From positions 4,260,946-4,324,945 of the forward strand of contig OZ253501.1 in assembly GCA_965262145.1 (NCBI GenBank): a stretch of DNA of 64,000 nucleotides. Reading direction: 5' to 3'. The DNA is from Candidatus Latescibacterota bacterium. GTDB taxonomy: Bacteria; Latescibacterota; UBA2968. Of this stretch, positions 9,365 through 50,142 are shown one piece after another (within the stretch, counting starts at the first letter, position 1; each line of letters begins with the position of its first letter). Made by a program: the position numbers and the translations under genes. The notes beneath the pieces were generated by a model that saw only the letters and a program-made list of their open reading frames with translations, made no database searches and was not told where the DNA came from.

Positions 9365-10270
9365 TTATCCATCCAACCGTTCGGCCAGCGCACAGGTGGC
9401 TGGCGTGCCATCTACCTCCGCAAACACTTTTCCAAATTCCTCCCGAGAAACCTGCCGCGTATTCTCTCCGCGATACTGAAATTGCAGTGCCCTGCGGCGG
9501 TGCGGACTGCGGTTGGGAGGCGTGTGATGGGGCAGCATCGCCGAAAAGATCATCGCCCCTCCCGCCTTCATTTCCAATGGAACCGCATCACTGTAATCCA
9601 ACCGACCTTCCACAATCTGACAATCAATCGTATGTACGTGTTTGAATGCCTCGCCCTTATGTCTGCCGGGCAACACATGCATGCACCCATTCTCCACCGT
9701 TGCATCGTCCAGCGTAATCCACGCCGTAGCAACCGCCTCTAAAGGCAACCAGTCAAAATAGGCATTGTCCTGATGCCAGGGCTTTTCCGATCCGATAAAC
9801 GGCGGCTTGGAAAGAGCCATCTCGTTTTTCAAAACCACCTTCTGCCCCAGAACGCGCTCCACAAATCCCTTGATACGCGGATGTTCGACCAGGGCTTGAA
9901 ACGTGGGATGCGCCTGATGATACCCGTGCAGCTTGCGAAATTTAAGCTCGGCTTCGGCATTTTCCAATGATAGAGGCTCCTCAACACCCGGCTCAAAATG
10001 GATCCCAAACGGGCCGTCCAATTCCTGCACCTGAGTCCCAGCATAGTTCCCTCTTGCCCCAGATTTTGCTTCCCAAACCCGCGCCCGTCCCCCGCGTGCC
10101 TCGTCCATCAACCACCCCGTGATCTCGCTCAAAGCTGTCAGAGCAGCCTCGACCTCTTCGGCAGTCAGTACATTTTCAAATGCGAGATACCCATTTCGGT
10201 GAAATTGCGCCACCAGGGCATCGTCCATGTCCTCTGGACAATCCGGTAAACGCGCTATCGACACAGACAT
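9365..10270 (-). CDS. Phytanoyl-CoA dioxygenase (PhyH) family Fe(II)/2OG oxygenase
   Basis: It contains the 'HQDNAYF' motif. The length (301 aa) and overall pattern are PhyH-like. Confidence 0.75.
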   Translation of the reverse strand: MSVSIARLPDCPEDMDDALVAQFHRNGYLAFENVLTAEEVEAALTALSEITGWLMDEARGGRARVWEAKSGARGNYAGTQVQELDGPFGIHFEPGVEEPLSLENAEAELKFRKLHGYHQAHPTFQALVEHPRIKGFVERVLGQKVVLKNEMALSKPPFIGSEKPWHQDNAYFDWLPLEAVATAWITLDDATVENGCMHVLPGRHKGEAFKHVHTIDCQIVEGRLDYSDAVPLEMKAGGAMIFSAMLPHHTPPNRSPHRRRALQFQYRGENTRQVSREEFGKVFAEVDGTPATCALAERLDG

Positions 10271-13053: not shown

Positions 13054-14037
13054 TCATTTTTCACCGCGAATTTTCCGATTCAACCGCGCGGCCTTCACCA
13101 ACTCGCGCTCCAACAATTGATAATAGACCGCCGAATCCATCGTCGCTTTCTTTTTTACCAGAGCCTGCACCTCGTCAATAGCCTTGCCATAAGCAGCAAC
13201 AAGCGCGGGTTCCGTACCTTTGGGAACGCGAAAATTGAGTAAAAAACAACGGTCTGCCAACATCCCATCGCCCTCGGCAATATCGGACAGACGCGTACCC
13301 AAACCATCGCCGTTATCGTCCAAAATCGCGTTCTCTGTCGCAATCAGGCCCTCACTCAAAAACCACGCATCTGTCAGTGAAGATGCCTGTGTGCAAATCT
13401 CCAAAATCGAAATGCGATCATCGCGATTTTGATCGGCACTGCCATCCTCCAATGCCTGCACAAAAAACCGCATAAATTGCGTGGCATTGAGCTGATCCGT
13501 ACTGCGCGTACTCGCGCATATAATACGCCCATCTCGACTCAGAGCATTGACAAAAGGCGCGCTCATCGACGCACTATTAACAACGACTATCCGCCGCGCA
13601 GATATCGATTTCAAAAAGCCGTCCAAGCCTTCAATTGTCAAATCCGCACCGGGGATATTCAGCTTGCCAACCTGGCGCCGATAGCTCCCGTGTCCAATTA
13701 AAAAAATGAACACATCATCACTCGGCGTTACCCGCTCTGACAAACGGCGAAATGCATTGCGTATGCCTTCTATTGACGCCGCGCCATCGGCATTCTCACC
13801 CGTCTCATTTACCAATTGTACATTTGCTACGGGATGATCGCATCGCTCAATCAGCACCCGGCGCAGGCGCTTCCCCCACCCGTCAAACTGCTCGGCATAC
13901 ACATCCTCGCCACCACTACCACTAATAATCACATCGAAAATCGCAGCATCCACCCGCGCCAACATCAACACCCAAATGGGGAACACCCATAACGCGCTTT
14001 TTTTCACGGCTCTCCCCGCTTCCGTCTCAAATACCAT
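13054..14037 (-). CDS. Hypothetical secreted protein at the distal end of the MoxR/Bat-type operon
   Basis: It is 327 aa with an N-terminal hydrophobic segment. It has a weak legumain/caspase-like 'IGHGS...VVVNSASMS' arrangement, but no catalytic Cys. Confidence 0.5.
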   Translation of the reverse strand: MVFETEAGRAVKKSALWVFPIWVLMLARVDAAIFDVIISGSGGEDVYAEQFDGWGKRLRRVLIERCDHPVANVQLVNETGENADGAASIEGIRNAFRRLSERVTPSDDVFIFLIGHGSYRRQVGKLNIPGADLTIEGLDGFLKSISARRIVVVNSASMSAPFVNALSRDGRIICASTRSTDQLNATQFMRFFVQALEDGSADQNRDDRISILEICTQASSLTDAWFLSEGLIATENAILDDNGDGLGTRLSDIAEGDGMLADRCFLLNFRVPKGTEPALVAAYGKAIDEVQALVKKKATMDSAVYYQLLERELVKAARLNRKIRGEK

Positions 14038-16358
14038 TCAAGACAGAGCAACAACACAAGTAGAATATAAAAAGGTGGAAAATGCCACAACGGAAAACGA
14101 TCCAACCGCGCATGGGCCTGGTCGGTATATGGAATCTGCTCGGCCAATTGGTCCAGCGCATCCAACTCGATAAATTTGCCCCCTGTGTGTGCAGACAAGC
14201 GCCTTAAAAAATCGGGATTATAACGCGCAGACAAAAACTCGAGATGATCTGGACGCGCCAGCACAGCCCCTTCCAACTGCCCAACATCCGCGCCATCGGC
14301 ACGTGCAATAAGTCTTACGCGGTGCAATCCCGCTTCTGTAGCTTCAAAGGTCGCAGAATACGCACCCACCTCGGCAATGGATTCAGAAACTGGCAACCTA
14401 ATCGTCCCGCCATTCGGTATCTCGACCTGCACATCAACGGACAGCCCCTCACGGGGTTCAAACAGGGAATCGCGCACCACAAACTTCAATTCGCGCATGT
14501 CCCCCACCACAACATCCTCGCCGCTATCGATCATCGTCACAGGCTCGGGTACCCGCATCGCCAACAAACGCGCCAACTGCCGCCAAAAGCGTTCGTGGGC
14601 TGCATCGTCAACATTTTGCATCATCTGCCACTGCCATGTCTCGCCCGTACCCAGTGCCGCACTCAAACCCTCTCCATATCGCTGCCAGGCAAACAGCGGT
14701 TGCCCATCCACAGCTTCAGACTCAGTATCCACCGTCGCCATCACCGTTGCACCAGCGCGCACAGACACAAATGCATTGACCCCGTAAAGCGCGGATAAAT
14801 TTGCCCACTGCTCGGCATTGACTTCGGCATCTTCGCTTAAAGACCAGACCCCCGACAACAAGCCTTCAATCGTCGGCCTCGCGCGAAAAGCCACATCGTC
14901 GTAATCGCCAGCAGGCCCCAACACAACGGGCAACATCGGTTCAATTGTCGAATGTGCCCACCCACCTTCTGAGTATGCACGCGGACCGCCTAACATCAAA
15001 AAACTGCCCCCACGTTTGGACACAAATTCCCGCGTTAAATTGAGTTGGGCAAGAGAAAAGAAATCGCGCTCAATATCCCCCCAGATCACCAGGTGATAGC
15101 GAAAAAGCTCTGAAACATCTGAGGGATACCCACTCGCCAACTCCGATTTTGACACGCCAATCCGAATAAAAACCGCTTCATCATAACGCGGCGCATTCAG
15201 CGCCTGATCGTCAAAACCCTCAAAAAGGGGATTCGCCATCGTCGCATCGCGCCCCCGAAATACAAACTTGCGCTCGGCACCAGAAATGCGAACCAGACTC
15301 GACAGAGCCAGTTGCGGTGCCCCATCTAAAGCGCGCCGCAAAAACTTGCCCTCCCAATTGGGCCGCCCGCTAAAATACAAAATGCGAAAAATTCGCTCGC
15401 GATTATTCACCAGAATATCCCGAGCATTATTCTCAGCAATGCGGTCTTTTGTCGCAACGCCCGTAGTATCTGCCAAACGCACACGCACGCGGTGCGCCAG
15501 CCAGCCATCTTCTTGTGGATCAAAATGGAGCCGAACGTAATTCTCTTCTTGCGGCCCTACAATAGAAAGCGGTGACGACGCCACCACCCGCTTGCCATCC
15601 AATACATCGACCATCACCTCTTCACCACCCAACCCCTCGGCCACTACCCGCGCTTTAACCGCTACCTCGTCGGAGCGCACGCGCGACACAGACACATCGG
15701 CCAATGCGAGATCGCGCCATAGATCATCGCGTCCTATCCCCACCGTAAAAACGGGCACATCGCGGGGCAAATCCGTCAAAGGCGCGGGCGCGGCACTTTG
15801 CTGCACCCCATCGCTAAACACCACCACCGCCGACACCGCAGCCCCCGACATTTGCTTGAGCACCCCGCGCACTGCGCCGACAATATCTGATCGCCTCTGA
15901 TCAAACGCGAGGCCTTCAACCTCATTTACGCGCGCTGTTGTGCTGCCAAACCGAAACCGCGCCACCTGGTGGGACTGCGTCAACACGCGCTCAAAATCCG
16001 ACGCCTGATACGCCTGCACAAATCGTTCTGCTCGCGTCTGTCCACCATTTTCGGACACCGTCATACTGCGGGAATCATCGAACAAAACAGGCACAAAATG
16101 CGTGCCAGGCTCCAACTTCCGCGCCACCAGCGCAGGCCCCAATAACAAAAACAGCACCAACGTTAATGCCAGCGCGCGCAACCCAATCAACACCTTTGAA
16201 AGTGCGGGTCGTCGCCTGTGCCAGAACCCCACACCCGCACAAAAAACAACGCCGAGCAAGACCAGCGCCACAGGCCATGCGACATCCAGTGCAAACCGCA
16301 CATCGCGATACGCAACGGCGCGATCCCCGGCCAATAAGTGTAATAACCAGTCAGTCAT
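14004..16358 (-). CDS. Large membrane-anchored protein of a Bat/MoxR-type locus (vWA-like then GATase1-like architecture)
   Basis: It is 784 aa with two N-terminal TM helices. The family is typical of planctomycete-like Bat operons. It ends with a TM helix and a basic tail. Confidence 0.65.
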   Translation of the reverse strand: MTDWLLHLLAGDRAVAYRDVRFALDVAWPVALVLLGVVFCAGVGFWHRRRPALSKVLIGLRALALTLVLFLLLGPALVARKLEPGTHFVPVLFDDSRSMTVSENGGQTRAERFVQAYQASDFERVLTQSHQVARFRFGSTTARVNEVEGLAFDQRRSDIVGAVRGVLKQMSGAAVSAVVVFSDGVQQSAAPAPLTDLPRDVPVFTVGIGRDDLWRDLALADVSVSRVRSDEVAVKARVVAEGLGGEEVMVDVLDGKRVVASSPLSIVGPQEENYVRLHFDPQEDGWLAHRVRVRLADTTGVATKDRIAENNARDILVNNRERIFRILYFSGRPNWEGKFLRRALDGAPQLALSSLVRISGAERKFVFRGRDATMANPLFEGFDDQALNAPRYDEAVFIRIGVSKSELASGYPSDVSELFRYHLVIWGDIERDFFSLAQLNLTREFVSKRGGSFLMLGGPRAYSEGGWAHSTIEPMLPVVLGPAGDYDDVAFRARPTIEGLLSGVWSLSEDAEVNAEQWANLSALYGVNAFVSVRAGATVMATVDTESEAVDGQPLFAWQRYGEGLSAALGTGETWQWQMMQNVDDAAHERFWRQLARLLAMRVPEPVTMIDSGEDVVVGDMRELKFVVRDSLFEPREGLSVDVQVEIPNGGTIRLPVSESIAEVGAYSATFEATEAGLHRVRLIARADGADVGQLEGAVLARPDHLEFLSARYNPDFLRRLSAHTGGKFIELDALDQLAEQIPYTDQAHARLDRFPLWHFPPFYILLVLLLCLEWYLRRKRGEP

Positions 16359-16402
16359 AGAATGCGAGTAAACAGAGTTTTTGGACGACTTGGTTGGTAG
16401 TG

Positions 16403-17053
16403 TTAGCCATGGGGATATACCTTTCCGGGATCAAGCGATTGACCGAGAAACCGCAAGGCTCTTTCCAAGGTACCGAAGCACGGCACATCGGCGTCTCGCA
16501 AGCGGTCAAAGTCGAGCATCTGCGTCATCGGAAGTTGGTCGAGCGTTGGTTTGTAGCTTCTATTCGAGGGGTAGTGGTTAGACAGCCACTCTTTGACGCC
16601 CCTTCTCGCTTCCCACGATGTTCCCTCCCATGAAGTTCCCTCTTTCAGACCGGGACGATCTCGTCCTGCCTGATCTTTGACCGGTTTGCCTGCTATGAGA
16701 TCAAGGCACGGCAGGAAAAGCACTTCATATTCGGGGTGCAGCAAGACGACTGAGGACGGAAAGGGGAGGTTGAGTTGTCGCAGCCAGTTCGCCATCTCTG
16801 GTCCTCGTTCTTTCGGACAGTCATCGTCTTCGTCGCGGAGTATAAGGAGCGCGCGGACATTTACCCGTGTACGAATGTACTCTGCTCCTTTTCGCAGGCC
16901 CTCTTCCGAGTGTAGATTTTTCCAGCGAATAGGATTTGACCAGGGAAAATAGATGTCGAGATCAGCGGAAAGTCGCGTGAGAAGATTTCCTACTGCTTGG
17001 ACCTCGCCGTGTCCTTCCACCAAGGCGTAAGCTGTTCCCCCCGGGTTTATCAC
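16403..17053 (-). CDS. DUF4276-family protein, TOPRIM-like putative nuclease partner of the upstream ATPase
   Basis: It is 216 aa. An N-terminal 'LVEGHGE' Glu and a 'LILRDEDDDC' acidic DxD block resemble TOPRIM. Its start overlaps the ATPase stop (ATGA). Confidence 0.55.
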   Translation of the reverse strand: MINPGGTAYALVEGHGEVQAVGNLLTRLSADLDIYFPWSNPIRWKNLHSEEGLRKGAEYIRTRVNVRALLILRDEDDDCPKERGPEMANWLRQLNLPFPSSVVLLHPEYEVLFLPCLDLIAGKPVKDQAGRDRPGLKEGTSWEGTSWEARRGVKEWLSNHYPSNRSYKPTLDQLPMTQMLDFDRLRDADVPCFGTLERALRFLGQSLDPGKVYPHG

Positions 17054-18204
17054 TTGGCGGTCTCCTGTTCCTCTTGCCGCAGTCCCTCCATTGTCATCAG
17101 TTCACCCAACCTTAAAAGACGATCAGAGACCGCTTTGCGTTGGTATTGGGCCATAGGGTGGATGCTCGTCGCGCCATTTGTGCGTTCCACAACTTGGACT
17201 TCGTGTGGTTTTACCAAGTCCAAAAGTTCGGGGCTGTGGGTTGTGATGATTACTTGGCTTTGCTTGCTCGCCTGTCGCAGGTAGTCCATCAGAAGGGGTA
17301 ATGCGCCGGGGTGAACGGTCAGTTCAGGTTCTTCAATGCCAATAATTGGCAACGGTGGTTCTTGGAGCAGGGCTGTCAAGATTCCCGCGACGCGGAGTGT
17401 GCCATCGGATTCTTGATACATATTGAACCACTTATCCTCCTTTTTCGACCCGTGCCTGAATTGGGCCACGCGGTTACTTGGATCTCCGGTCACTCTGACA
17501 TCCCTAATATCCCCAGTGAGCCGGTTGAGTCCAGCTACGAGATCAGATTTCATTGAAGATTCCTGACTTTCCAAGACCGAGACCCAGTTGTCGCCATGTC
17601 TGTTCATTTGTTCGGAAAAGACGTGATTCTGGATCAACAGCATTTGGTTGGGATAAATTGAGTAAATCACCAAACGCGAGAGCAGGTCAAAAAGGGAGGT
17701 GAACCTTTTGTCGCCAGCGACCATTGGAAGCGCGAGGCTGATGGGGTTTATTTGTGGCACAAGTCCCGGCGGTCCGGCCCATGGACTACCCATTCCATCA
17801 TGATGATCAAGCGTGAAACTCACTTCTTCTCGGTCTATAGAAAGACGGGCCTCTTCCAATTTGACTCCGAACGCTTGTCTTTGATACGAAGCGATTTCGA
17901 ATGCGTAGGAGCCTGGGCCTGATTCCAGTTTAACGTCGAGCTTAATGGAAATGTTATGTGAATCGCTTGAACCCCGATGCCTGATCGCGTCAAAGCCTCC
18001 CCGAACGCTAAGTGCGTGTGAGAGGCCCATGTGCATGGCATCGCGGACGAAGGTAAGCACATCAACAACGTTGCTCTTGCCCGAACCGTTGGGGCCAACG
18101 AGGACGGTCAAGGGTCCCAAAGGAATGTGCTGCTCCCGTCCTATACTTTTGTAGTTCGAGACAGTGATTCCCGTGATTTTCGTACGCTGTTTGTTCATGT
18201 TCAA
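17050..18204 (-). CDS. AAA_21/ABC-type ATPase (OLD/AriA/PtuA-like)
   Basis: It has a Walker A 'GPNGSGKSN', a Q-loop and signature-like 'QESDGTLRVAGIL', and a Walker B/D-loop 'IGIEEPELTVHP'. The length is 384 aa. Confidence 0.85.
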   Translation of the reverse strand: MNMNKQRTKITGITVSNYKSIGREQHIPLGPLTVLVGPNGSGKSNVVDVLTFVRDAMHMGLSHALSVRGGFDAIRHRGSSDSHNISIKLDVKLESGPGSYAFEIASYQRQAFGVKLEEARLSIDREEVSFTLDHHDGMGSPWAGPPGLVPQINPISLALPMVAGDKRFTSLFDLLSRLVIYSIYPNQMLLIQNHVFSEQMNRHGDNWVSVLESQESSMKSDLVAGLNRLTGDIRDVRVTGDPSNRVAQFRHGSKKEDKWFNMYQESDGTLRVAGILTALLQEPPLPIIGIEEPELTVHPGALPLLMDYLRQASKQSQVIITTHSPELLDLVKPHEVQVVERTNGATSIHPMAQYQRKAVSDRLLRLGELMTMEGLRQEEQETAK

Positions 18205-18289
18205 CTCTCTTTCAGCAAAGCATTTAGAGTCTCTAACATTTTCCGAAAACGATCAAGAGTCGATTCGTCTAACTCTTTCTCAAGTGAAC

Positions 18290-18439
18290 TTATCTGATCG
18301 CTGAAGTAGCGAGCCGGGCGGTAATGTTTGATTCAATCCGCAACTTCTGCTCGATCCGCGCGATGACATCGGGCGGAAGCGGCCGGAGGTCGTCGAGCTC
18401 TCTCTTGAGGCGATCAACGGTTTCGATGATGTTGGGCAT
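18290..18439 (-). pseudogene. Truncated Fic-family N-terminal fragment (49 codons)
   Basis: 'MPNIIETVDRLKRELDDLRPLPPDVIARIEQKLRIESNIT' resembles the Fic N-terminal 'LRPLPPE..L..W.RIE.TY.SNAIEGNTL' motif. The frame then terminates with no catalytic domain. Confidence 0.3.
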
Positions 18440-18440
18440 A

Positions 18441-21400
18441 TCACTTCTCACGTTCCGTCAATGCCTTAAAATACTCGGCAACGCGGGTGCGGTATTGCTC
18501 GGGAATTTCATCCGCCTTGCCAGCGGAAAGGCCATAATCGCTTTTTTGCTCTCGAATCAGCTCCGACAATTCTTCGGCAGACAGCGTCAAAGGCTTGATC
18601 GCGCGATCAAAAATCAAATCGTATTGCGGCACCGCCCCCTCGCGATAATAATCGCGCCCAATACCCGCCAGATATTCGCGGATACCCATCAAACGCTGTC
18701 GCAGATCCAAATCGGCTGGCAAAAGCGACTCGGCCTCGCGCAACCGATCCATCCAATCGCGAAAACCGCTTTCTGCAAAGCGGCGCAACGCATCGGGGCT
18801 TTGCGGTCCCCATCCAAAACGCCCATCGCGACCATCCGATTCTCCACCCATCACATTCTCCAGACGCTCCTGCGCCCGCTCCAATGCCTCCAGATCGTCG
18901 CGCACCAGAAATTGCGCGACACCATCGAGTTTTTCAGCCGCCAGATCCAATTTATCCGCCACAGCGCGCTCGTGTTTTTCCGATCCCTGCCACGCCCCCA
19001 ATCTCACCAATCGCTCGCCCGCTTGCATATCTTCAAAAATACCCTCTCGGCTCGTCTCGCGCAGCCAGTCATTGAGCTTTTGCGCCATCAAACCCTGGCT
19101 TTCAGCGGCCTTTTCTGCCAACGCACTCGCCTCCTCCATCATATCGCGGAACTCATCGGCTGTGCGTTGCTTGCCCTCGAGCATCTCTCTCGACCCACGC
19201 TCCGAATCAGACAGCGTTCCGCGTCGCTCCTGCTGATCCTGTGCCTGCGCGACTAAACCGCGCTGTTGGGCACGCAAACTATCCATCTTTTCTTGCAACA
19301 TTTTCACGCGCTCAGCAGCCGCCCCACGCGATAAATTACCCAATTGCTCCCGCACATCGCGCAATGCGTCCAAAGCGCGATTGCCCGCAGCCCGCGCCCG
19401 TTGCAACTGATCGTTCTCCAGATTTTGCGCGCTGCGGCTCATTTGCCGCCGCGCACCTTCCAATTGCTCCCGCGCCCGCCTCGCCTGTTGCGGGTCCATA
19501 TCCCCAGACGCAATCTCGCCATTAACCGCATCGAGCGCGTCCATCGTCTGACGCTGCGCCTCGCGCAACTGCTCCAAGCGTCGTTTGGCTTCTTCGCGCG
19601 CTTCGCTCTCCAATTTTTCCGCTTCTGAAATCAACTGCGCCACATCTTCGTTAATCGCCGCCTGCCGCTTTGTCAATTCCTCAATTTTGTTTTTCGCCTC
19701 TGCCGTCTCGGCCAGTTGCTGTTGCAATGTAGATGCCTCTTCTCGAAAATCTCGCCGCTGCGCCAACTCCAGGCCATCCAACTCGCGTTGTTGTCCACCG
19801 CGCGCACCACCTCCGCGCTGTCGCCTACCTTGCACGACCTCAGATTCTCTCGGTTTCCTCTGCAAAAGGTATCGATAAGCGCGCTGTGCATGCCCCAAAG
19901 CCCTTGCCAATGCCGCATCGGGATCGTCAAAAGACGCCTCGCTCAGTGCCCCTATAACACCCGCAAACTCGGCTTCCAAATCCGCGGCACTATTCCTCAC
20001 AGAACCCTGAACATTTTCCTGTGCCTCAATAATGGCGCGCTTTTGCCCATCGTATTCTCCTCGATCCATCCCCGACGCGCCTTTACGCAAATTCCAGATC
20101 GCAATAATCACCTGTTTCTGCCCCTCCGCACCACCCTCCTGCCCCCTGCCCTGTCCCTGCTGACCGCCCTCGTTACTCACAGCCTGGCGATAGAGCCGTT
20201 CAAAAGGCCGAATCTCCAAAAAGTAGGGATCGCCCAGATTCTCCACCTCAGACCGTCCGGGCTTGCCATCTTCTGCCCAAACCGTCCAGGTGATAAAATC
20301 GCCCGCCGCGAGACCCAGATCTTCTAACGCCATCGGATACTCGCCCTCTGCACTTTCTATCCGCGTTGCCTCCGTCTTAAGAGAAATTCGCACGGGATCG
20401 CGCCCTGCCACCTCGTATTGCAAACCGTAATCCGTGAGTCTGTAATCGTCTTTAATGGAAAACCCAAAAGCCACTTCCTCAATTGCCGTGGCCTCGTCAT
20501 CCCCTCGTGGAAAACGCACCTGGATGCGCGGCGGCTGATCGACTTTGGCCGTAATTTTATACGCGCGCGCATACTCATTTTCCTCGCCATCGGCATCCCG
20601 CAACCCCACCTCGTACGAGCTATTCTCTGTAATCGACAGTATGCCTTCCCACACAGCATCATCTGAATTTTTCAACGCCATTTCTTCCCCACCATCCAAT
20701 ACCAGAGCTGCCTTCTCCAACACTTTATTCACTGTCACCGACACCACCACCTCCGTGCCTTCAGGAGCCGTAATATCGCCCCCATAAGGCACTTCGCGGT
20801 CTTCCATCTCCAAATAGTCGGGATAGCGATACAAAAGCCCAATCGACACAACTTCGGGCGGTGTCCACACCGAAAGTGTATAGACATCGGAACGATAAGC
20901 CCCAACCTGCACCTGGTATTCTGTATCGGCATACAAACCGCGCAATTGGTGGGCAAACACATCGCCAATCTCTCCAGGCTCTAAAGGCGCGGTTTGCCAG
21001 TCGCCCCCCGATATCCGCCACTGGATCGCTTTGCTCGCCCCTGTGAGATCTGTCGTCACCCACACCATCTGATGCGCCCCGCGCCGCACCCGCGCATCAC
21101 CCGGTTCAACAGTATAGGGCAATGGCAAAGTCGGTACAAAAAACAACCGTCCCGCAATATCGCCCAGATCAACCTGCCACAGTGCCACAATCAACACAAC
21201 AGCTCCCAATCCCCAAATCCCAACAACAGCACGGCGCACACGCTTCAAAACGCGCAAATCAATCACAGGAGGAGCCTGTATCGCCGACAATTCGCGCACC
21301 TGCTGAAACACTTGCTCGGTCATCCACTCGGAAACCGGCGTCGCCCCATGCAGCGACACACTGCTCACAATCAGATCCTCAAGCTCGGGATGATGTGCAT

Positions 21401-21674
21401 CGAGAAACAGCGCGATCTGTTCCCGTGTCACCACCGTCCGCTGCGGAACGTACAACCATTTATACCCCGCGCCAACGACCAAAATAAGAAATATTAGCAC
21501 CGGCGCAATCACAGGCACGCGATCGACAAAAGCCACCGTAGCGCACAATCCAATCAGCAAACTCAAAAACACAGTGCCAAATATTAACCGACCTTGCAAA
21601 CGTCGCCGCCGTTCAAACTGCGCGGCTACTTCGCGGATCGCGTGTTCCAATTTAAGCGGTAGCAATGGTATCAT
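18441..21674 (-). CDS. Large membrane protein (N-terminal TM helices, long Q/R/E-rich coiled coil, DUF4175-like) of the MoxR/BatA operon
   Basis: It is 1077 aa. It has N-terminal hydrophobic helices and a central ~350-aa heptad-rich coiled-coil region. It overlaps the BatA stop by 4 nt. Confidence 0.7.
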   Translation of the reverse strand: MIPLLPLKLEHAIREVAAQFERRRRLQGRLIFGTVFLSLLIGLCATVAFVDRVPVIAPVLIFLILVVGAGYKWLYVPQRTVVTREQIALFLDAHHPELEDLIVSSVSLHGATPVSEWMTEQVFQQVRELSAIQAPPVIDLRVLKRVRRAVVGIWGLGAVVLIVALWQVDLGDIAGRLFFVPTLPLPYTVEPGDARVRRGAHQMVWVTTDLTGASKAIQWRISGGDWQTAPLEPGEIGDVFAHQLRGLYADTEYQVQVGAYRSDVYTLSVWTPPEVVSIGLLYRYPDYLEMEDREVPYGGDITAPEGTEVVVSVTVNKVLEKAALVLDGGEEMALKNSDDAVWEGILSITENSSYEVGLRDADGEENEYARAYKITAKVDQPPRIQVRFPRGDDEATAIEEVAFGFSIKDDYRLTDYGLQYEVAGRDPVRISLKTEATRIESAEGEYPMALEDLGLAAGDFITWTVWAEDGKPGRSEVENLGDPYFLEIRPFERLYRQAVSNEGGQQGQGRGQEGGAEGQKQVIIAIWNLRKGASGMDRGEYDGQKRAIIEAQENVQGSVRNSAADLEAEFAGVIGALSEASFDDPDAALARALGHAQRAYRYLLQRKPRESEVVQGRRQRGGGARGGQQRELDGLELAQRRDFREEASTLQQQLAETAEAKNKIEELTKRQAAINEDVAQLISEAEKLESEAREEAKRRLEQLREAQRQTMDALDAVNGEIASGDMDPQQARRAREQLEGARRQMSRSAQNLENDQLQRARAAGNRALDALRDVREQLGNLSRGAAAERVKMLQEKMDSLRAQQRGLVAQAQDQQERRGTLSDSERGSREMLEGKQRTADEFRDMMEEASALAEKAAESQGLMAQKLNDWLRETSREGIFEDMQAGERLVRLGAWQGSEKHERAVADKLDLAAEKLDGVAQFLVRDDLEALERAQERLENVMGGESDGRDGRFGWGPQSPDALRRFAESGFRDWMDRLREAESLLPADLDLRQRLMGIREYLAGIGRDYYREGAVPQYDLIFDRAIKPLTLSAEELSELIREQKSDYGLSAGKADEIPEQYRTRVAEYFKALTEREK

Positions 21675-24534: not shown

Positions 24535-24539
24535 TCACC

Positions 24540-33416: not shown

Positions 33417-34088
33417 ATGGACGGCATTCACGACATGGGCGGAATGCACGGATTTGGTCCCATTGTCCGCGAAGAAAACGAACCTTTATTTCACCACTCC
33501 TGGGAGAGCCGGGTACTCGCCATATCCGTAGCCACGCCTGTACCGATCCCCGGAGGCTCCCGCAACAATATCGAAAACATGGACCCCGCGCACTACCTCT
33601 CGTCCAGCTATTACGAAAAATGGCTGTACTCCCGTATCAAAGGACTGATTGACGCTGGCGTCCTAACCCCGGAAGAGATGGAAACGCGGATGGCACTATT
33701 CAAGAACACCCCCAATGCCAAAACCCCGGAACATCCCGATCCCGATGCCGTCAGAGCGGAACTCGTGCGATCTCGCCCTGCCAATCCACCCCAACAGAAA
33801 ATGGATATCCAGCCGCAATTTTCCAATGGCGACCACGTAAAAGCACGCAATATCCATCCCGAAGGCCACACCCGGCTCCCCCGATACATACGGGGCAAAT
33901 ACGGCACAATCACCAATTACTACGGCATCTACAATCTCCAGGACGCCGAACTGCCCAAAGGGTGTGCAAATCGCCAGCAACCCTTATACGCCGTGCGCTT
34001 TGAAGCCTCGGAACTATGGGGTAACGCCGCCGAAACAAAAAGTGCCGTCTATCTGGACATGTGGGAAAGCTATCTGGAATCGGCTTAA
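33417..34088 (+). CDS. Nitrile hydratase beta subunit
   Basis: 'MDGIHDMGGMHGFGPI' and the C-terminal 'RYIRGKYGTITNYYGIY...LYAVRFEASELWG' match canonical NHase beta. An RBS 'aggag' lies 7 nt upstream. Confidence 0.85.
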   Translation: MDGIHDMGGMHGFGPIVREENEPLFHHSWESRVLAISVATPVPIPGGSRNNIENMDPAHYLSSSYYEKWLYSRIKGLIDAGVLTPEEMETRMALFKNTPNAKTPEHPDPDAVRAELVRSRPANPPQQKMDIQPQFSNGDHVKARNIHPEGHTRLPRYIRGKYGTITNYYGIYNLQDAELPKGCANRQQPLYAVRFEASELWGNAAETKSAVYLDMWESYLESA

Positions 34089-34248
34089 CCATCCCCAATC
34101 GGAAAAAGGAAGTAATTATTTAGGTTTTTGTGGTCGCGTAGGAGGGAAATCCTTTTCCCGACCTTGATCGCGGCAGGGATGCCGCTCCTACAGCATCCTT
34201 TCCCTCATCTTTCAGATGACCTAACCTAATAAAAAAGGGATACCTCTC

Positions 34249-34842
34249 ATGAACACAGTTGCCCAAACCGACACTGCCCTGCGCACCAGAGCGCTCGAAT
34301 CACTCCTGATCGAAAAGGGTTTGCTTACAACAGAGATTATAGACGAAATCGTAGAAAAATATGAAAAAGACGTAGGCCCACTCAACGGTGCCAAAGTGGT
34401 TGCCCGCGCCTGGACTGACCCGGACTATAAGCGACGGCTAATAGAAGATGGCAGAGCGGCTATTGCCGAACTGGGTTTTGACAGCGCGCACGGTGCCAAA
34501 ATCGTCGTACTTGAAAACACATCAAGCGTCCACTATGTCGTCGTCTGCACCCTTTGCTCCTGTTATCCCTGGTCCGTACTCGGCTTGCCCCCGAACTGGT
34601 ATAAATCCTATGCGTACCGCTCTCGAGTCGTGCGGGAGCCAAGAGCCGTCTTGCGAGAATTTGATCTCGATCTATCCGACTCCGTAGAAATCCGCGTCTG
34701 GGACAGCAACTCGGACCTCCGCTACATGGTCCTGCCCGAACGTCCTCCCGGCACAAAAGACTACACCGAAGAACAGCTTGTCCCACTTGTCACGCGCGAC
34801 TCGATGATCGGCGTGGCCATGATCGAATCTCCTTCAAAGTGA
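34249..34842 (+). CDS. Nitrile hydratase alpha subunit, cobalt-type
   Basis: It has the metal-binding '[11 protein letters not shown]' motif, where Thr indicates the Co type. It is 197 aa. Confidence 0.9.
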
Positions 34843-34849
34843 GGATAGG

Positions 34850-35191
34850 ATGGCGCAAAAAACCGACGGACAAATCGCCACCATGGAAGCAACAATCGCC
34901 CTACCCAGAGAAAATGGAGAACTCGTTTTTCAAGCCCCCTGGGAAGCGCGCGCATTCGGCCTTGCCGTTGCACTCAACGAAAAAGACCTCTACGAATGGC
35001 GGGAATTTAGCGCAGAACTCGCTACGAATATCGCGGCAGCAGAACAAAACAACGACCCATCGAGCTACTATGCCCGATGGGTCGCTTCTCTCGAAGAATT
35101 GGTCATTGATAGAGGCTTGATCAGCCGAGAACAACTGGACACCAAAACAGCGGAATACGCCTCTGGCATTCACGACCATCACGACCACTAA
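34850..35191 (+). CDS. Nitrile hydratase accessory (activator/metallochaperone) protein, beta-homologous
   Basis: 'ELVFQAPWEARAFGLAVAL' resembles the beta N-terminus. It is 113 aa. The C-terminal tail is His-rich, 'GIHDHHDH'. Confidence 0.7.
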   Translation: MAQKTDGQIATMEATIALPRENGELVFQAPWEARAFGLAVALNEKDLYEWREFSAELATNIAAAEQNNDPSSYYARWVASLEELVIDRGLISREQLDTKTAEYASGIHDHHDH

Positions 35192-35246
35192 AATTTACAT
35201 CCCGCAAACCAGAAAGGGTTACGCCATCTCGACGTAACCCTTTATA
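35163..35246. repeat. Left copy of an imperfect direct repeat (NHase accessory 3' end plus terminator) flanking the TA module
   Basis: It pairs with 36135-36243. The shared sequence is ggcattcacgac...cacgaccatca.cacga.cactaaaa...aaagggttacg...gacgtaaccctttt. Confidence 0.7.
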
Positions 35247-35248
35247 TA
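35216..35248 (+). terminator. Rho-independent terminator of the NHase operon
   Basis: The hairpin is gggttacg...cgtaaccc followed by tttatataatttt. Confidence 0.65.
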
Positions 35249-35366
35249 ATTTTAGCTGCCTGATATGACATTTTTTAGAATTACAAATGGGGACCTGAAT
35301 TGACTATCCATAGCGATTGTGGTATGTTTTTATTTATGGTACACACTACTAACAAAGGAATAAAAT

Positions 35367-35660
35367 ATGGCCCAAATGATACAGTTGCAGAACAGTGATG
35401 AAGCGTTACGCCGGATGGTCGAAACGTGCCGGAACCAAAATGAAGAATGCGTAATTGAGGATAATCAGAATCGTCCTGTAGCGGTTATGATGCCCATTGA
35501 ACGCTATGAATCCTATCAAGCTTATCTGAAGCAGAAGGAGAAAAATTTTGCGATTCTTGATACAGTAGCTGAAGATTTAAAAAATTATGAACCAGATTTT
35601 ATAGAGAGTCAGATCGAAAAAGCAGTACAAGAAGTGAAAGCTGAGGCTAAAAAACAATAA
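35367..35660 (+). CDS. Type II antitoxin, Phd/YefM-like
   Basis: It is 97 aa with 'RPVAVMMPIERYESYQ'. It lies 15 nt upstream of a PIN toxin gene in an AT-rich context. Confidence 0.5.
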   Translation: MAQMIQLQNSDEALRRMVETCRNQNEECVIEDNQNRPVAVMMPIERYESYQAYLKQKEKNFAILDTVAEDLKNYEPDFIESQIEKAVQEVKAEAKKQ

Positions 35661-35675
35661 TTGGTAAACTAATTT

Positions 35676-36128
35676 ATGCCCCGTGTTGTACTTGATGTAA
35701 ATGTTTTAGTGAGCAGTTTGATTAATCCCCGAGGTTCTACAGGTCAAATACAGGTCGCGTGGCGGCGAGATGAAATTAGTGTGATTACTTCAAAGGCTAT
35801 TATAACCAAAACTGAGGAAGTTTTACGTCGTCCTCATATTTTTGCGTTGTTTCCTATAGCTCGGGCAGAGGCGCGTATTCAGGGACTGCTCGCATTACTT
35901 CAAAACCAGACAATTCTAACTCCTCACTCCCTCAACCTGATGGTCATAGAAGATGATCCCGAGGATGATACCATTATCATAGCAGCAGTTGAAGGCAACG
36001 CGGATTGTATTGTTTCTGGTGATCGTCATCTTAGGAATTTGAAATCATATCGGGGTATTCCAATTCTATCACCTGCTGAATTTTTGGCACAGTATAAGAT
36101 CGAAAGCCCAAACATCCACGATAGCTAA
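35676..36128 (+). CDS. PIN-domain toxin (TIGR00305-type putative TA toxin)
   Basis: 'MPRVVLDVNVLVSSLINPRG' is the typical family start. It has conserved acidic residues (D7, E, D near 'SGDRHL'). Confidence 0.7.
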   Translation: MPRVVLDVNVLVSSLINPRGSTGQIQVAWRRDEISVITSKAIITKTEEVLRRPHIFALFPIARAEARIQGLLALLQNQTILTPHSLNLMVIEDDPEDDTIIIAAVEGNADCIVSGDRHLRNLKSYRGIPILSPAEFLAQYKIESPNIHDS

Positions 36129-36134
36129 ACACAA

Positions 36135-36243
36135 GAGCAACCATGGACGGCATTCACGACGGTCACGACCATCATCACGATCACTAAAAATCTACAACAA
36201 CAAAATAAAAAGGGTTACGTCGTGGTGACGTAACCCTTTTTTT
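36135..36243. repeat. Right copy of the direct repeat, with a chimeric 14-codon mini-ORF (36143-36187, MDGIHDGHDHHHDH) and a second terminator hairpin
   Basis: It starts with 26 nt identical to the nthB start region (33409-33434). It then continues with a diverged copy of the accessory-gene end. The hairpin gggttacgtc/gacgtaaccc is followed by a T-run. Confidence 0.7.
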
Positions 36244-36291
36244 GTTAGCCATCTGTTTTTAAACGCTGATTTCTGAACACTAAAATTTTTG

Positions 36292-37455
36292 TCAGTTGAT
36301 CATTCCGGCCTGAAATTGCTCGAATAAAATTTCTTCTAATCGACATTTTAAAGTTCTGGGTTTGAGAAATAGCTGTTTTTCTTCTTCGGGCGTACAGATA
36401 CCCAGAGGGACTGCATGTGCAAGCCGCGTGAATTTGTACTGCACGCCATCAAGTTGAAATTTGTAATTCTCAAGCTGGGCGTATAATGTGGGCAACTCAG
36501 GCCACTCGCGATAATTTTCTCCGTGTAGGTCAACGAAGAAGGGGTATTTGATATCCCGTTCCAGCTTCAAATGCCAATTGAATCCCCACGCGGGATTTTG
36601 AAGTAATACGCTCCATATAGCTTCCTGTTCAGAATACGAAAAGTACGTGTTCGTGTACCATATAAAGCCGAGCCAGCACATGCCACCACCCCGGGCATTG
36701 ATATCCACCCCTCCAGCCATCACCTTCCATTCTGGTCTGTGCGCTGCATTTTGGAGAAATAATTCAGATGCAAACGCATGGGTACGCGGAAACCAGCAAA
36801 ATCCCGAGAAGTCTGCATCTGTCCCAATAAATCCACCCTTATACGAATCTGAGAGCCAGCGAACGTGCTTACCTGTCTTAAGCCGTGTAAAGTTGATCCC
36901 TGTGTGAATAAAATTTCTAAAATTTGATTCTGTAAGATACGCATCTGTCCAGTTGGACATACTGCCATCGGCGCGAAAGAACGTGCAACCTTCAACGGTT
37001 GTCCTGGAAAAGTCTGCCCCCAGCATTTGGGCATGATCAAAGGTACAATCCAAAAATTTGGCTTCCCGAAAAATCGCTCTGGTGAGATTGGCCCTGCTAA
37101 AATTACAACGAGTGAAAACCGATTGTGAGTGATCTGAAAAGGATAGACTGAGGCCGGAATAATCCTGGTCCGTGTGCTCACAATTTTTCCCCTTTCTCGA
37201 TACCTCGGCGGAAAAACCATTCGCATTCAAAAGGTAATCTATCGATATCTTGCCCTTTGTTTCTTCTTTGATAAATTCGACCAACTTCGACGCTGTGCAG
37301 TGTTGAAGTTTAACATTTCCTTCCTTTGCACGATGCACTGTTGAACGCGGGACACCTGAACAACTTGTGACATACTCTAACGTAAGCCAATCATTCTGCT
37401 CGAATAGCCAACACAGTTCACGCGATATTCTCTGACTTAAACTTTCTTTCTGCAC
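36292..37455 (-). CDS. Pentapeptide-repeat protein with N-terminal HTH-like segment
   Basis: The tandem A(N/D)LXX pentapeptides are 'ANLTRAIFREAKFLDCTFDHAQMLGADFSRTTVEGCTFFR'. It is 387 aa. Confidence 0.65.
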   Translation of the reverse strand: MQKESLSQRISRELCWLFEQNDWLTLEYVTSCSGVPRSTVHRAKEGNVKLQHCTASKLVEFIKEETKGKISIDYLLNANGFSAEVSRKGKNCEHTDQDYSGLSLSFSDHSQSVFTRCNFSRANLTRAIFREAKFLDCTFDHAQMLGADFSRTTVEGCTFFRADGSMSNWTDAYLTESNFRNFIHTGINFTRLKTGKHVRWLSDSYKGGFIGTDADFSGFCWFPRTHAFASELFLQNAAHRPEWKVMAGGVDINARGGGMCWLGFIWYTNTYFSYSEQEAIWSVLLQNPAWGFNWHLKLERDIKYPFFVDLHGENYREWPELPTLYAQLENYKFQLDGVQYKFTRLAHAVPLGICTPEEEKQLFLKPRTLKCRLEEILFEQFQAGMIN

Positions 37456-37778
37456 TTATTTGCCCTCCTCAAAATGGAACAAAATGGAACAACAGTAACT
37501 TGCTTATTCGCTGGTTAAAATTACATTGCGAATTGTAGCTAAGCGATACTCGAGTACAGCATGGCAAAAAATCATTCACACACGATGTGGTTTACGTTGT
37601 GCATTTGGCTCAAGGAGACTGTCTGGCAGAACCTGTACCAATTCAGCTATTATTTTAAATTCTATATCGGCTCACGCATACGGTTGCATCAACTTACAAA
37701 AAAATCTCTTCTTACAAAACCAATTTTTGCACGACTGCGTAACATCGGTTATTTCAACTAAAAATAGGATTTGACCAT

Positions 37779-38987
37779 ATGGGCAGACTAAAAAGCCAGT
37801 TTCTATTTTATAGTCAACACAGTATTGGCGTCGGACATTATATGAGAATACGCCAAATATTAAAGGCGTTGGCAGGTGAAACAGTTCATTTTATTAATGG
37901 TGGCGCTGAGGTGGAGGCACTTGAGGATATTGCAGATGTAACGGTTACTCATTTACCTACGGTAAGATTTGATCCGCAAACAGGTGCTCTCAATGCCGAT
38001 GAAGATGAATTGAAAGTGCTGCTGAAGAAACGTGCTGAATTGGTAAGACAGACGTTTGAGCAGGTTCAGCCCAGTGTTATGGTTATTGAATTTTTTCCCT
38101 TTGGGCGCTGGAATTTAAGGTCTGAATTGCTTCCGATTTTAGAGACGACCAAATTATCAATACCTCGTAGGACACGGTTGGTTTGTTCGCTTCGGGATGT
38201 GCCTCAAGAGTCTTTTAAAGAAAGTTATGAAATGCGGTGCTGTGCCGTTTTAAATACATACTTTGATCATCTCCTCATACACTCTGATCCTGAATTTTTT
38301 CATCTGAAGGACAGTTTTCCATCTTGGAAAAAAATAAAAATCAGTACGCATTACACGGGATATGTTTCTATGAAGTATAAGAGTGGGGTATCAGACGAGG
38401 TGGATTGTGCAATAAGACCAGAAGATAAAATCATCCTCGTCACAGCAGGCAGTGGGGCTGATGCTTATGGCACATTTGATTATTTGAAGGCTTGCATACA
38501 AGCAAAGGTACTTCTTGGTCAGCATATAAAAGTAAAGATGTTGATTTATACCGGTTGTTTTTTTAGTGACGATAGATATGCCAAACTCAAAGCATTCTGT
38601 CAAGATCAAGATATTATCCTTAAAAGATTTACCTCTCAGATTTTATACTGGATGAAACGAGCGGAACTTTCTATCAGTCGAGGTGGCTATAATACATGCA
38701 TGAACATTCTTGAAACTGGGGTGCGTTCTGTGACTGTCCCTGTAGGATTGTCCAATGATCAGAATAATCGGGCAAAAAAAATGGCTGCTCTCAATCTGAC
38801 ACACAAACTCGATGAGGCAGATTTGACGCCTGAAAATCTCTGTAATACGATGCTTCAGGCATTAAAATCCCCCCCCGCAAAACATCAAATACGTCTCGAT
38901 GGTGCGTACCACACAGCCGAACTTTTAAAGAATCTGAAGCTTTATAGTAACCAAAATGCACACTGCCAAATGAAAGCCACAGCATGA
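37779..38987 (+). CDS. Glycosyltransferase, COG4671/GT28-C-like
   Basis: 'FYSQHSIGVGHYMRIRQILKAL' matches the predicted-glycosyltransferase family start. It is 402 aa. Confidence 0.6.
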   Translation: MGRLKSQFLFYSQHSIGVGHYMRIRQILKALAGETVHFINGGAEVEALEDIADVTVTHLPTVRFDPQTGALNADEDELKVLLKKRAELVRQTFEQVQPSVMVIEFFPFGRWNLRSELLPILETTKLSIPRRTRLVCSLRDVPQESFKESYEMRCCAVLNTYFDHLLIHSDPEFFHLKDSFPSWKKIKISTHYTGYVSMKYKSGVSDEVDCAIRPEDKIILVTAGSGADAYGTFDYLKACIQAKVLLGQHIKVKMLIYTGCFFSDDRYAKLKAFCQDQDIILKRFTSQILYWMKRAELSISRGGYNTCMNILETGVRSVTVPVGLSNDQNNRAKKMAALNLTHKLDEADLTPENLCNTMLQALKSPPAKHQIRLDGAYHTAELLKNLKLYSNQNAHCQMKATA

Positions 38988-40207: not shown

Positions 40208-40244
40208 AAATGTCGGTTGTGAATCTTTTGGTGTTGAACTGGAA

Positions 40245-40344
40245 TGAGGGAATTCTTCAGAAGGGGCGGTTCCATTATCTATGCATAGCATCAAAAAGAA
40301 GAACACCCTTTTCCGGTTTTATTTTTTTGAAAGGAGGTGATATT
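40245..40344 (+). promoter_or_regulatory. Conserved 5' leader/promoter region of the small Cys-rich protein gene (copy A)
   Basis: About 95% identical to 50143-50238. It contains the perfect palindrome CTATGCATAG and the SD GAAAGGAGGTGATATT ahead of the ATG. Confidence 0.6.
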
Positions 40345-40698: not shown

Positions 40699-40822
40699 GA
40701 TATCGTCTTCAAAGCGTTTTTAACTCGCCCCTTGATATTATACCGTCTAATGGGGTGAAAAAACTCTCCACTCCATTAGCTAACTCTGCCTATCAGAATC
40801 GTATCATCCAAAGGAATGCACT

Positions 40823-44569: not shown

Positions 44570-44658
44570 AATTAAGCGCCCATTCCTCAGTCAATGGACC
44601 GATCAAAGGTCACATATCTAAAGCTATGCTGTCTGTCATAAAAAGGTAGAGACTGAAC

Positions 44659-45561: not shown

Positions 45562-45591
45562 TCGACTGTCTTCACATGTGAGTAGATACAC

Positions 45592-47277: not shown

Positions 47278-47332
47278 TATGGCTGTCCTTTATTTTTCTC
47301 TCCTATTAATGCTTTGTCGTCAGGATTGAGAT

Positions 47333-50122: not shown

Positions 50123-50142
50123 AGAAATTCGAACTGAAATAA

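Follow-up and report, generated by a model that had tools for sequence, protein, structure and literature searches.

[quoted passage not shown] The proposal gained support from the profile matches of the two proteins to HEC-01A and HEC-01B, and from the position of the pair as an insert within a conserved operon. We regard it as reasonably probable that the pair is a HEC-01 two-gene candidate anti-phage cassette, composed of an SMC/Rad50-like ABC ATPase and a Toprim-fold DUF4276 nuclease, and carried as an accessory insert in a core operon of a Latescibacterota genome.

An accessory insert within a conserved operon

The gene pair announced at 16403-18204 consists of two whole ORFs, both on the minus strand, and the reported interruption of the MoxR/DUF58/BatA operon was borne out, since 13 of 15 related genomes show a direct overlap of the 1077-aa gene with the 784-aa gene. 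The 2083-bp block between these two genes is therefore an accessory insert, with presence/absence polymorphism. The insert and its surroundings comprise the following features:

18441..21674, minus strand: flanking host gene, 1077 aa, DUF4175, upstream member of the MoxR/DUF58/BatA-type operon
16358..18440, minus strand: whole accessory insert, 2083 bp, bounded by the TGA stop (18441-18443) that ends the 1077-aa gene and by the TGA inside the ATG-A with which the 784-aa gene newly starts
18199..18440, minus strand: leader of the insert, with a 49-codon Fic-like ORF and a shared upstream stretch
18293-18439, minus strand: 49-codon ORF, candidate Fic-like N-terminal remnant, beginning 1 nt past the stop of the 1077-aa gene
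16359..16402, minus strand: spacer of 44 nt separating the DUF4276 stop from the 784-aa gene
14004..16358, minus strand: host gene bordering the insert downstream, 784 aa, GATase1_like, from the MoxR/DUF58/BatA-type operon

A 3-bp TGA/TGA repeat flanks the insert; apart from this and from short repeats at chance level, no terminal inverted repeats or long direct repeats were found around it, and neither an integrase nor a transposase was found within the window's insert. The 784-aa gene, 83-95% identical in 15 Latescibacterota genomes, begins in the empty sites at a GTG overlapping the upstream stop, and in the window at a new ATG whose A comes from the insert. The empty junction reads GAGAAGTGACTGACTGG in 13 related genomes, and the filled junction of the window and L001 has TATGCCC...CATTCTA between GAGAAGTGA and TGACTGACTGG. 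The four filled alleles at this junction (window, L001, L016, and L017) have the right junction in common and differ in their left parts, and one of them adjoins a PDC-S60-like gene and an IS256 transposase. On the host tree, which carries no bootstrap support values, filled and empty alleles are interleaved. A single recent insertion was rejected as an explanation, because the filled alleles fall in two host clades amid empty ones, and cassette and flanking gene have equal dS between the clades (about 0.3).

The operon has a second junction of this kind, between MoxR and DUF58, which is occupied in relatives by VapBC, a Schlafen/AlbA_2 gene or a second HEC-01 pair; nucleotidyltransferase genes are also taken up at the operon junctions, which are thus general hotspots. 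Coding-strand GC skew is about 0 within the insert vs. +0.19 to +0.34 across 12 flanking genes, and the strand skew of the surroundings has a magnitude of about 0.25; the composition of the insert is foreign. Elsewhere in the window, a low-GC block at 34-53 kb was considered as a defense island and rejected, its contents being glycosyl-/sulfotransferase, TPR and transposase genes.

These observations bear on a housekeeping or operon-linked role, in which the pair would be a DNA-repair accessory resembling RecF/RecR (ABC ATPase plus Toprim) or would serve the MoxR/vWA operon. RecF and RecN do occur among the structural and sequence matches of the ATPase, and L017 holds two different HEC-01 pairs inside one operon. 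However, the pair is missing from 13 of 15 close relatives in which the operon is intact, its close homologues stand in unrelated contexts from which Bat/MoxR genes are absent, the junctions also accept the VapBC, Schlafen/AlbA_2 and nucleotidyltransferase genes, and the composition of the insert is foreign, as described above. We consider such a role very improbable.

The pair had been described as lying next to the remnant of a Fic gene, a claim to which the present searches lend weak support: tblastn of the 49-aa ORF against plasmids returned annotated Fic family N-termini at E-values of 0.2-2, with 33-36 aa aligned at about 40-45% identity, while a Pfam search gave no match at E ≤ 1, and no full-length copy was found in any fetched locus. 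A leader stretch of about 85 nt (approximately 18199-18285) is common to the window, L001 and L016. Scanning of the insert and leader detected no sigma-70-like promoter on the minus strand and no Rfam RNA family match. Given the lack of a detectable promoter and the orientation of the ATPase and DUF4276 genes, which lie on the minus strand like the surrounding operon, the cassette is probably transcribed together with its host operon.

The two proteins and a swapped ATPase segment

The features of the two genes are as follows:

17050..18198, minus strand: HEC-01A-type ABC ATPase, 382 aa from ATG (the ORF list starts at TTG, 18204)
18073-18096, minus strand: ATPase Walker A, GPNGSGKS
17392-17409, minus strand: ATPase signature-like motif, SDGTLR
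17323-17346, minus strand: ATPase Walker B, IIGIEEPE
16403..17053, minus strand: HEC-01B-type DUF4276 protein, 216 aa, predicted Toprim-like nuclease, whose GTG start overlaps the ATPase stop
17015-17017, minus strand: DUF4276 E13
16820-16834, minus strand: DUF4276 D74-D78

The ATPase is an ABC-type protein, as first described, with Walker A, signature-like and Walker B motifs all present and TTHS as its H-loop; the length of 384 aa given for it was counted from the TTG, and the ATG two codons downstream, which fits the N-termini of homologues, yields 382 aa. Pfam searches had been recommended for both proteins, and in them the ATPase matched AAA_21 (6.2e-36) and AAA_15 (8.6e-19), while its partner matched DUF4276 above the cut-off (1.4e-7, 32.3 bits vs. 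a gathering cut-off of 30.2). The predicted structure of the ATPase is that of an ABC ATPase near SMC/Rad50, PtuA and AriA. The overlap between the genes is a 4-nt GTGA (AAG TGA / GTG ATA), with DUF4276 starting at GTG, and not the ATGA previously read; the two genes are tightly translationally coupled.

The acidic residues of the DUF4276 protein are E13 and R-D74-E-D76-D-D78, and the TOPRIM-like arrangement of an N-terminal Glu and an acidic cluster was confirmed, E13, D74 and D76 being invariant in 45 homologues. The protein has the Toprim fold with the conserved metal-binding Glu and DxD, in line with the assignment of DUF4276 to the Toprim superfamily (PMC12065111). When the DUF4276 alignment was used as a profile to search PDB sequences, nothing was returned, so that no relative of solved structure is detectable by sequence.

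Among PADLOC profiles, PDLC04178 (HEC-01A) matched the ATPase at 5.7e-95 and 316.7 bits, with residues 1-380 of 382 aligned to profile positions 1-387 of 399, and PDLC04196 (HEC-01B) matched residues 10-199 of the DUF4276 protein at 1e-29, both counting as full-length matches; the genes are adjacent and co-oriented, in the HEC-01 order. As judged by these profiles, the pair is a member of HEC-01, a cassette type already catalogued, and no new kind of system. HEC-01 is the "Hma-embedded candidate 01" of PADLOC, described as an ABC ATPase with a TOPRIM protein that has a conserved metal site (Payne et al., bioRxiv 10.1101/2024.01.29.577857).

Comparison of the filled alleles located a region of exchange within the ATPase:

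17407..17652, minus strand: ATPase segment swapped between alleles, aa 183-264, extending from the Q-loop region until shortly ahead of the signature motif
17391-17840, minus strand: broader variable zone of the ATPase

Between the ATPases of the window and L001, nucleotide identity is 61-69% in the swapped segment and 92-100% elsewhere, and dS reaches 1.73 in aa 183-264 vs. 0.13-0.17 in the neighboring segments. This segment, of ancient divergence, was swapped into the ATPase, and the alleles are mosaic. Two allele classes of the segment exist among Latescibacterota ATPases, and these two old classes of the lobe are paired with a nearly identical DUF4276 nuclease. A frameshift was rejected as the cause of the divergence, since the sequences truly differ at the nucleotide level and the other frames do not recover the consensus; recent positive selection on the segment was likewise rejected, dS being saturated at 1.7 and dN/dS being 0.24.

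The divergence of this segment could also be read as a sign that the pair is decaying and non-functional, left over from an old insertion. Residues 183-200 of the window ATPase depart from the family consensus PDTLRxPQK and are modeled with low confidence (low pLDDT over residues 183-203), the leader contains the truncated Fic-like ORF, and the Asp of Walker B is replaced by Glu. Nonetheless, both ORFs are intact and retain every catalytic motif, dN/dS ranges from 0.03 to 0.5 across the four alleles, the divergent class of the segment shows conservation in at least six alleles, and the Walker B Glu (GIEEPE) is a trait of the whole ATPase subfamily. Both genes are under purifying selection, and decay has very little chance of being the correct explanation.

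Proposed function and genomic contexts

On the model of OLD, PARIS and Gabija, a dimer of the ATPase would act as sensor and scaffold, keeping the DUF4276 nuclease inactive until it is released or activated, either by a trigger of phage origin or by an altered nucleotide state; the active nuclease would then cut DNA or RNA, and the infection would be aborted. The nuclease activity of the pair, its complex, its trigger and its substrate are predictions drawn from these analogues. The lobe between Q-loop and signature (aa 183-264), which varies independently of the DUF4276 partner, would be the likeliest determinant of what is sensed.

The DUF4276 variant was believed to be experimentally uncharacterized, but HEC-01 has been assayed twice with mixed results (10.1101/2024.01.29.577857; PMC12881386). 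A representative expressed in E. coli gave no protection against any phage used (Payne et al., bioRxiv 10.1101/2024.01.29.577857), while a HEC-01 from a cold seep conferred protection on E. coli B against one or more of T7, T5, and T4, in a report that gives neither effect size nor mutants (PMC12881386). The unprotective representative of Payne et al. and the missing magnitude and mutants in PMC12881386 speak against the anti-phage reading, as do the housekeeping neighborhoods, the lack of copies on viral contigs and the Walker B Glu.

In seven other contexts, close homologues stand mostly among metabolic or housekeeping genes and not in defense islands; the ATPase gene lies directly upstream of DUF4276 in all seven, overlapping it or at most 30 nt away. 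Defense-island enrichment of homologue neighborhoods had been set beforehand as a test of the anti-phage claim, and on this point the claim partly failed. Most of the candidates shortlisted by Payne et al. likewise lie outside defense islands (bioRxiv 10.1101/2024.01.29.577857). A scan for the DUF4276 subfamily on viral contigs found none. As HEC-01 cassettes sit inside ordinary operons and outside defense islands, searches based on such islands would miss them.

The position of the cassette, a solitary two-gene unit amid housekeeping genes, would also suit a selfish addiction cassette, in which the Toprim nuclease would be a toxin restrained by the ATPase, leading to post-segregational or post-deletion killing and offering the host no phage protection. 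The VapBC-type toxin-antitoxin pairs at the other hotspot of the operon and the one published assay without phage protection point the same way. On the other hand, the clean empty site in 13 of 15 related genomes and the interleaving of filled and empty alleles on the host tree indicate that loss or replacement of the cassette is tolerated, phage protection has been reported in one study (PMC12881386), and the ancient swap of the ATPase lobe resembles a recognition polymorphism more than a simple antidote. We therefore hold addiction to be unlikely. The lack of protection in one coliphage panel would equally be expected if the pair targeted plasmids, transposons or incoming DNA instead of lytic phages, following the SMC-type logic of Wadjet and Lamassu, in which the ATPase would recognize the ends or the topology of DNA and cleavage would fall to the Toprim protein; HEC-01 is indeed listed in a study of plasmid-borne defense systems. 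Nevertheless, the ATPase is a compact model of 382 aa from which a long coiled coil is absent, kleisin-like or other partner genes are absent, and a positive phage result has been published (PMC12881386), all of which make this target range quite unlikely.

Within the anti-phage reading, which we prefer, a broader proposal may be advanced tentatively and with considerable doubt: cassettes of this HEC-01 subfamily could be promoter-less "operon hitch-hikers", inserted in sense at junctions of unrelated constitutive operons, beyond defense systems such as Hma; the two Latescibacterota operon junctions would be miniature, recombining defense/toxin-antitoxin hotspots, and old allele classes would trade the lobe from Q-loop to signature, which would determine specificity. 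Besides the Bat/MoxR operon, HEC-01 cassettes occur within a CoxMSL/xanthine-dehydrogenase-like operon (L027) and within a glycosyltransferase cluster (L025). In a bolder variant, which reverses "guilt by embedding", the MoxR-vWA/Bat operon may itself be a conflict system.

HEC-01 is reported to be among the most abundant candidate defense types in some environments (PMC12881386), yet the two published assays disagree. The locus described here is a natural comparison set, with isogenic-like empty and filled sites and four differently built filled alleles, and the two old lobe classes with their near-identical nuclease invite a lobe-swap comparison for specificity.

Comparison with known systems

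The resemblance to OLD and PARIS initially put forward holds, while membership in PARIS, OLD, Gabija, MADS, and Menshen does not. PARIS combines an AAA_15/21 ABC ATPase (AriA) with a separate Toprim effector (AriB), as the window does, and DUF4276 pairs have been placed on the same ATPase tree as PARIS (PMC11464382). However, AriB is a DUF4435 protein, whereas the window partner matches only DUF4276 (Pfam) and HEC-01B (PADLOC), with no AriB or DUF4435 match at E ≤ 0.01 in either collection, and the AriA profile matches the ATPase at 2.4e-37 against 5.7e-95 for HEC-01A. [quoted passage not shown] In contrast to Gabija, no UvrD-like GajB stands beside the window pair, whose neighbors are DUF4175 and GATase1_like genes and no helicase.

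In MADS, Mad4 is a DUF4276 protein (PMC12065111), and MAD3 is the best NCBIfam match of the ATPase (PADLOC mad3, 1.8e-22). Nonetheless, NF047739 (MAD3) scores the window ATPase at 84.9 bits vs. a cut-off of 420, and the methyltransferase and other mad genes are absent near the pair, the neighbors being operon genes. The ATPase is also weakly similar to NsnB of Menshen (NsnABC; 1.9e-25), some variants of which use DUF4276 as a predicted nuclease effector (PMC12065111); there, however, DUF4276 is the C-terminal domain of NsnC, while it is a stand-alone protein in the window, and genes resembling NsnA and NsnC are absent beside the pair.

Compared with HEC-01 as described, the window pair differs in its host, a core MoxR/DUF58/BatA-type operon and not an Hma, BREX or RM defense system. 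Sub-clusters can be told apart, the window pair falling in PDLC04178/04196 and the second pair of L006 and L017 in PDLC04175/04188. In both HEC-01 and the window, an ABC ATPase is followed by a small co-oriented TOPRIM-like protein, the conserved metal site of the Toprim protein and its comparison to BpOLD (6NK8) agree with Payne et al., and the cassette is embedded in the same orientation between genes of a larger operon.

The two genes and their products

The pair lies on the minus strand, inside an accessory insert placed between the 1077-aa gene (DUF4175) and the 784-aa gene (GATase1_like) of a MoxR/DUF58/BatA-type operon:

16358-18440: insert, 2083 bp, flanked by TGA/TGA (one TGA per side), giving the 784-aa gene a new ATG start
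17050-18204, minus strand: ATPase ORF, read from TTG
16403-17053, minus strand: DUF4276 ORF, 216 aa, GTG start

The two-gene observation of the initial annotation was essentially right and its interpretation right in kind, with small corrections. An ATG at 18198, two codons inside the ATPase ORF, gives a protein of 382 aa (MNKQRTKIT) in agreement with the N-termini of close homologues, and the genes are coupled through a GTGA overlap (AAG TGA / GTG ATA), not the ATGA previously reported. The proposed Pfam searches assigned the ATPase to AAA_21 (6.2e-36), AAA_15 (8.6e-19) and SMC_N, and its partner to DUF4276 (1.4e-7, barely over the gathering score). In PADLOC-DB the ATPase matched HEC-01A over its full length (5.7e-95), the AriA, AbiLi, NsnB, mad3, Old and GajA models being far weaker, and the partner matched HEC-01B (1e-29) and no other model.

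The ABC-type motifs described for the ATPase are present (Walker A GPNGSGKS, signature-like SDGTLR, Walker B IIGIEEPE, together with the H-loop TTHS) and invariant or almost so across 43 homologues. In the Walker B motif (17323-17346) Glu replaces the usual Asp throughout this HEC-01A sub-cluster, unlike a second HEC-01 pair found in a relative (L017), which has the canonical LDEPE. In an alignment of 45 DUF4276 homologues (58-89% identity, full-protein numbering) E13, R73, D74, D76, E108 and E110 are invariant, and D78, the fifth acidic residue of the window protein, is Ala in most. The AlphaFold2 model built from this alignment (pLDDT 92.1, pTM 0.89) puts E13 where strand 1 ends, D74/D76 where the third core strand ends and E108/E110 directly behind the next strand, a predicted placement corresponding to the canonical Toprim arrangement. 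A Foldseek search with the model returned nothing significant and the PDB holds no detectably related sequence; fold and motif positions combined are consistent with the Toprim-like reading first proposed. Cys79 and Cys116 are also invariant and Cys192 nearly so (motifs DDxCP, FLPC, VPCFGTLE), and could together make up a structural or metal-binding site of a kind not known from canonical Toprim domains.

Junctions and history of the insert

Relatives retrieved with the 784-aa flanking protein comprised 15 loci, all from Latescibacterota MAGs (83-95% identity). In 13 of them the stop of the 1077-aa gene directly overlaps the start of the 784-aa gene (GAGAAGTGACTGACTGG, a GTGA overlap). Of the 15, L001 alone has the pair at this junction, which bears out the earlier statement that it interrupts an otherwise syntenic operon. 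The window junctions read GAGAAGTGA/TATGCCC and CATTCTA/TGACTGACTGG, and no inverted repeats, integrase or transposase were found at the insert. The most distant relative, L014, has a non-coding 190-bp spacer at the junction (9813-10000) ending in TTCTATGACTGACTGG, eight bases that lead up to and take in the start codon and that the filled alleles share; the match may be a coincidence or the trace of an older state.

Plus-strand GC skew is about -0.25 (about -0.14 to -0.30) over roughly 4-30 kb, independently of gene orientation; across positions 4000-30000 it points to a replication-strand rather than a coding-strand bias, broken only by the 2.1-kb insert, whose skew is close to 0. Measured per gene, the coding-strand skew of 12 flanking genes ranges from +0.19 to +0.34; the ATPase gene has -0.03 and the DUF4276 gene -0.01. 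A 49-codon ORF, also present in L001, begins 1 nt past the stop of the 1077-aa gene. Of the Fic-gene remnant suggested here, a weak similarity of this ORF to the N-termini of annotated Fic family proteins (E 0.2-2) stood, and a Pfam match was not obtained. A conserved stretch of ~85 nt before the ATPase start resembles the C-terminal end of an upstream gene that has been lost, and the Fic-like leader material could plausibly be left over from the donor context.

Following close homologues of DUF4276 led to two further filled Latescibacterota alleles, L016 and L017. In L016 (6098-8661) a DUF4062 gene matching the PADLOC candidate PDC-S60 (1.3e-50) and a split IS256-type transposase lie upstream of the HEC-01 pair at the same junction, forming with it a mini defence islet, and in L017 only ~55 bp precede the pair. 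The right junction is common to all four filled alleles and the left parts differ. The left junction of L017 (8800-8856) holds a perfect hairpin (TTTGCGGTTTCAAACCGCAAA) flanked by duplicated AGTGAGAAGT, a copy of the end of the 1077-aa gene. In neighbour-joining trees of the flanking genes, built without bootstrap, the filled alleles belong to two host clades and are interleaved with empty ones. Between-clade dS is ~0.29 for DUF4276 and ~0.33 for the flanking 784-aa gene, taken as equal. On these values and the trees a recent single insertion was rejected, and the cassette is an old presence/absence polymorphism kept with recombination or repeated loss.

The MoxR-DUF58 junction of the operon is empty in the window (24535-24539, 5 bp) and variable in relatives, where it holds a MazE/PIN (VapBC-like) pair, a Schlafen/AlbA_2 gene, a nucleotidyltransferase or unannotated ORFs. 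In L006 and L017 it carries a second ATPase-DUF4276 pair, whose ATPase is 26% identical to that of the window and which also belongs to HEC-01 (HEC-01A 2.3e-135, HEC-01B 2.8e-78). The variable regions are:

L001: 1-1846
L002: 737-3940
L004: 3121-3925
L006: 1850-3922
L010: 1919-3748
L012 and L015: 1-3940
L017: 760-2640

The inserts of the window and L001 share 92-100% nucleotide identity, except at 17391-17840 (61-84%). Over the ATPase residues 183-264 dS is 1.73, against 0.13-0.17 in neighbouring segments, with dN/dS of 0.24; a frameshift was rejected as the cause. Two ATPase allele classes exist at the locus, one being the family consensus (PDTLRxPQKYSPxKPM...) and the other, that of the window (PNQMLLIQNHVFSEQMNR...), being common to L016, L017 and several metagenomic alleles. 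The divergent segment runs from the Q-loop region to just short of the signature motif, a lobe that in ABC ATPases generally couples to partners or substrates. DUF4276 is nearly alike between the classes (93% identity, dS 0.09), and we therefore infer that the swapped lobe faces the trigger, not the effector. With dN/dS of 0.03-0.18 in the ATPase C-terminal core and 0.16-0.48 in DUF4276, both genes are under purifying selection.

A low-GC block (0.40-0.47 vs. 0.53-0.58 elsewhere) of plus-strand genes spans 34000-53000 of the window, is probably an acquired surface-polysaccharide island, and contains TPR proteins as well as:

37779-40207, plus strand: glycosyltransferases
43293-44552, plus strand: DDE transposase
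44659-45561, plus strand: sulfotransferase
47333-50122, plus strand: 929-aa protein with cytochrome c554/c7 domains

Neighbourhoods elsewhere and possible role

In seven more distinct contexts (homologues at 58-69% identity) the ATPase gene is always directly upstream of DUF4276, overlapping or at most 30 nt apart. Most of the surrounding genes are metabolic or housekeeping ones, so that the defence-island enrichment proposed as a check on DUF4276 neighbourhoods did not show in this sample. Departing from this pattern are an additional AAA_15/21 ATPase, a single NYN protein, HicB- and VapBC-type genes (L026) and some transposases. No member was found in viral contigs. In L027 (6872-8639) and L028 (1790-3557) the pair sits in the same orientation as its neighbours within a molybdoenzyme operon (CoxM/CoxS/amidase/AllF/AllG/cyclase/CoxL-like), with spacers of 18 and 10 nt, and in L025 a pair closes a co-oriented glycosyltransferase array. 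For this subfamily, a place inside operons unrelated to defence may be the typical one.

The analysis shows that the pair belongs to HEC-01, and also its coupling, its conserved catalytic residues, the selection on it and its accessory status. We consider it fairly probable that this cassette has OLD/PARIS-like action and that read-through from the host operon expresses it, the insert leader having yielded neither a promoter-like site nor an RNA family. An ABC ATPase dimer would sense infection and, presumably in complex with its partner, govern a Toprim nuclease that would degrade nucleic acid as in the OLD/PARIS group, possibly leading to abortive infection. Less probable alternatives are a selfish module of the addiction type, a role against plasmids or other MGEs, an operon-linked or repair role, and decay of the cassette. 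What makes the locus useful is that empty and filled sites can be compared cleanly, that one operon has two hotspots and that a lobe of the ATPase has been swapped.

Relation to catalogued systems

The belief that the DUF4276 variant was uncharacterised is out of date, because HEC-01 and DUF4276 have already been described. HEC-01 comes from the set of "Hma-embedded candidates" put forward by Payne et al. (bioRxiv 10.1101/2024.01.29.577857) and was presented there as an ABC ATPase plus a TOPRIM protein with a metal site like that of B. pseudomallei OLD, and its representative in E. coli protected against 0 of the tested phages. A later study of cold-seep genomes counted HEC-01 with the most abundant candidate types and reported, without magnitude or mutants, that E. 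coli B carrying one representative was protected against at least one of the phages T7, T5 and T4 (PMC12881386; also a preprint). The Menshen study (PMC12065111) formally assigned DUF4276 to the Toprim superfamily and pointed out that the MADS protein Mad4 belongs to DUF4276; the PARIS paper (PMC11464382) has DUF4276 as a partner class on its tree of AAA_15/21 ATPases. The window pair is not a member of PARIS, having no DUF4435 AriB, nor of OLD or Gabija, its ATPase and Toprim being unfused and GajB absent, nor of MADS (MAD3 84.9 bits vs. a cut-off of 420, no methylase), nor of Menshen; it is an additional member of the already catalogued candidate family HEC-01.
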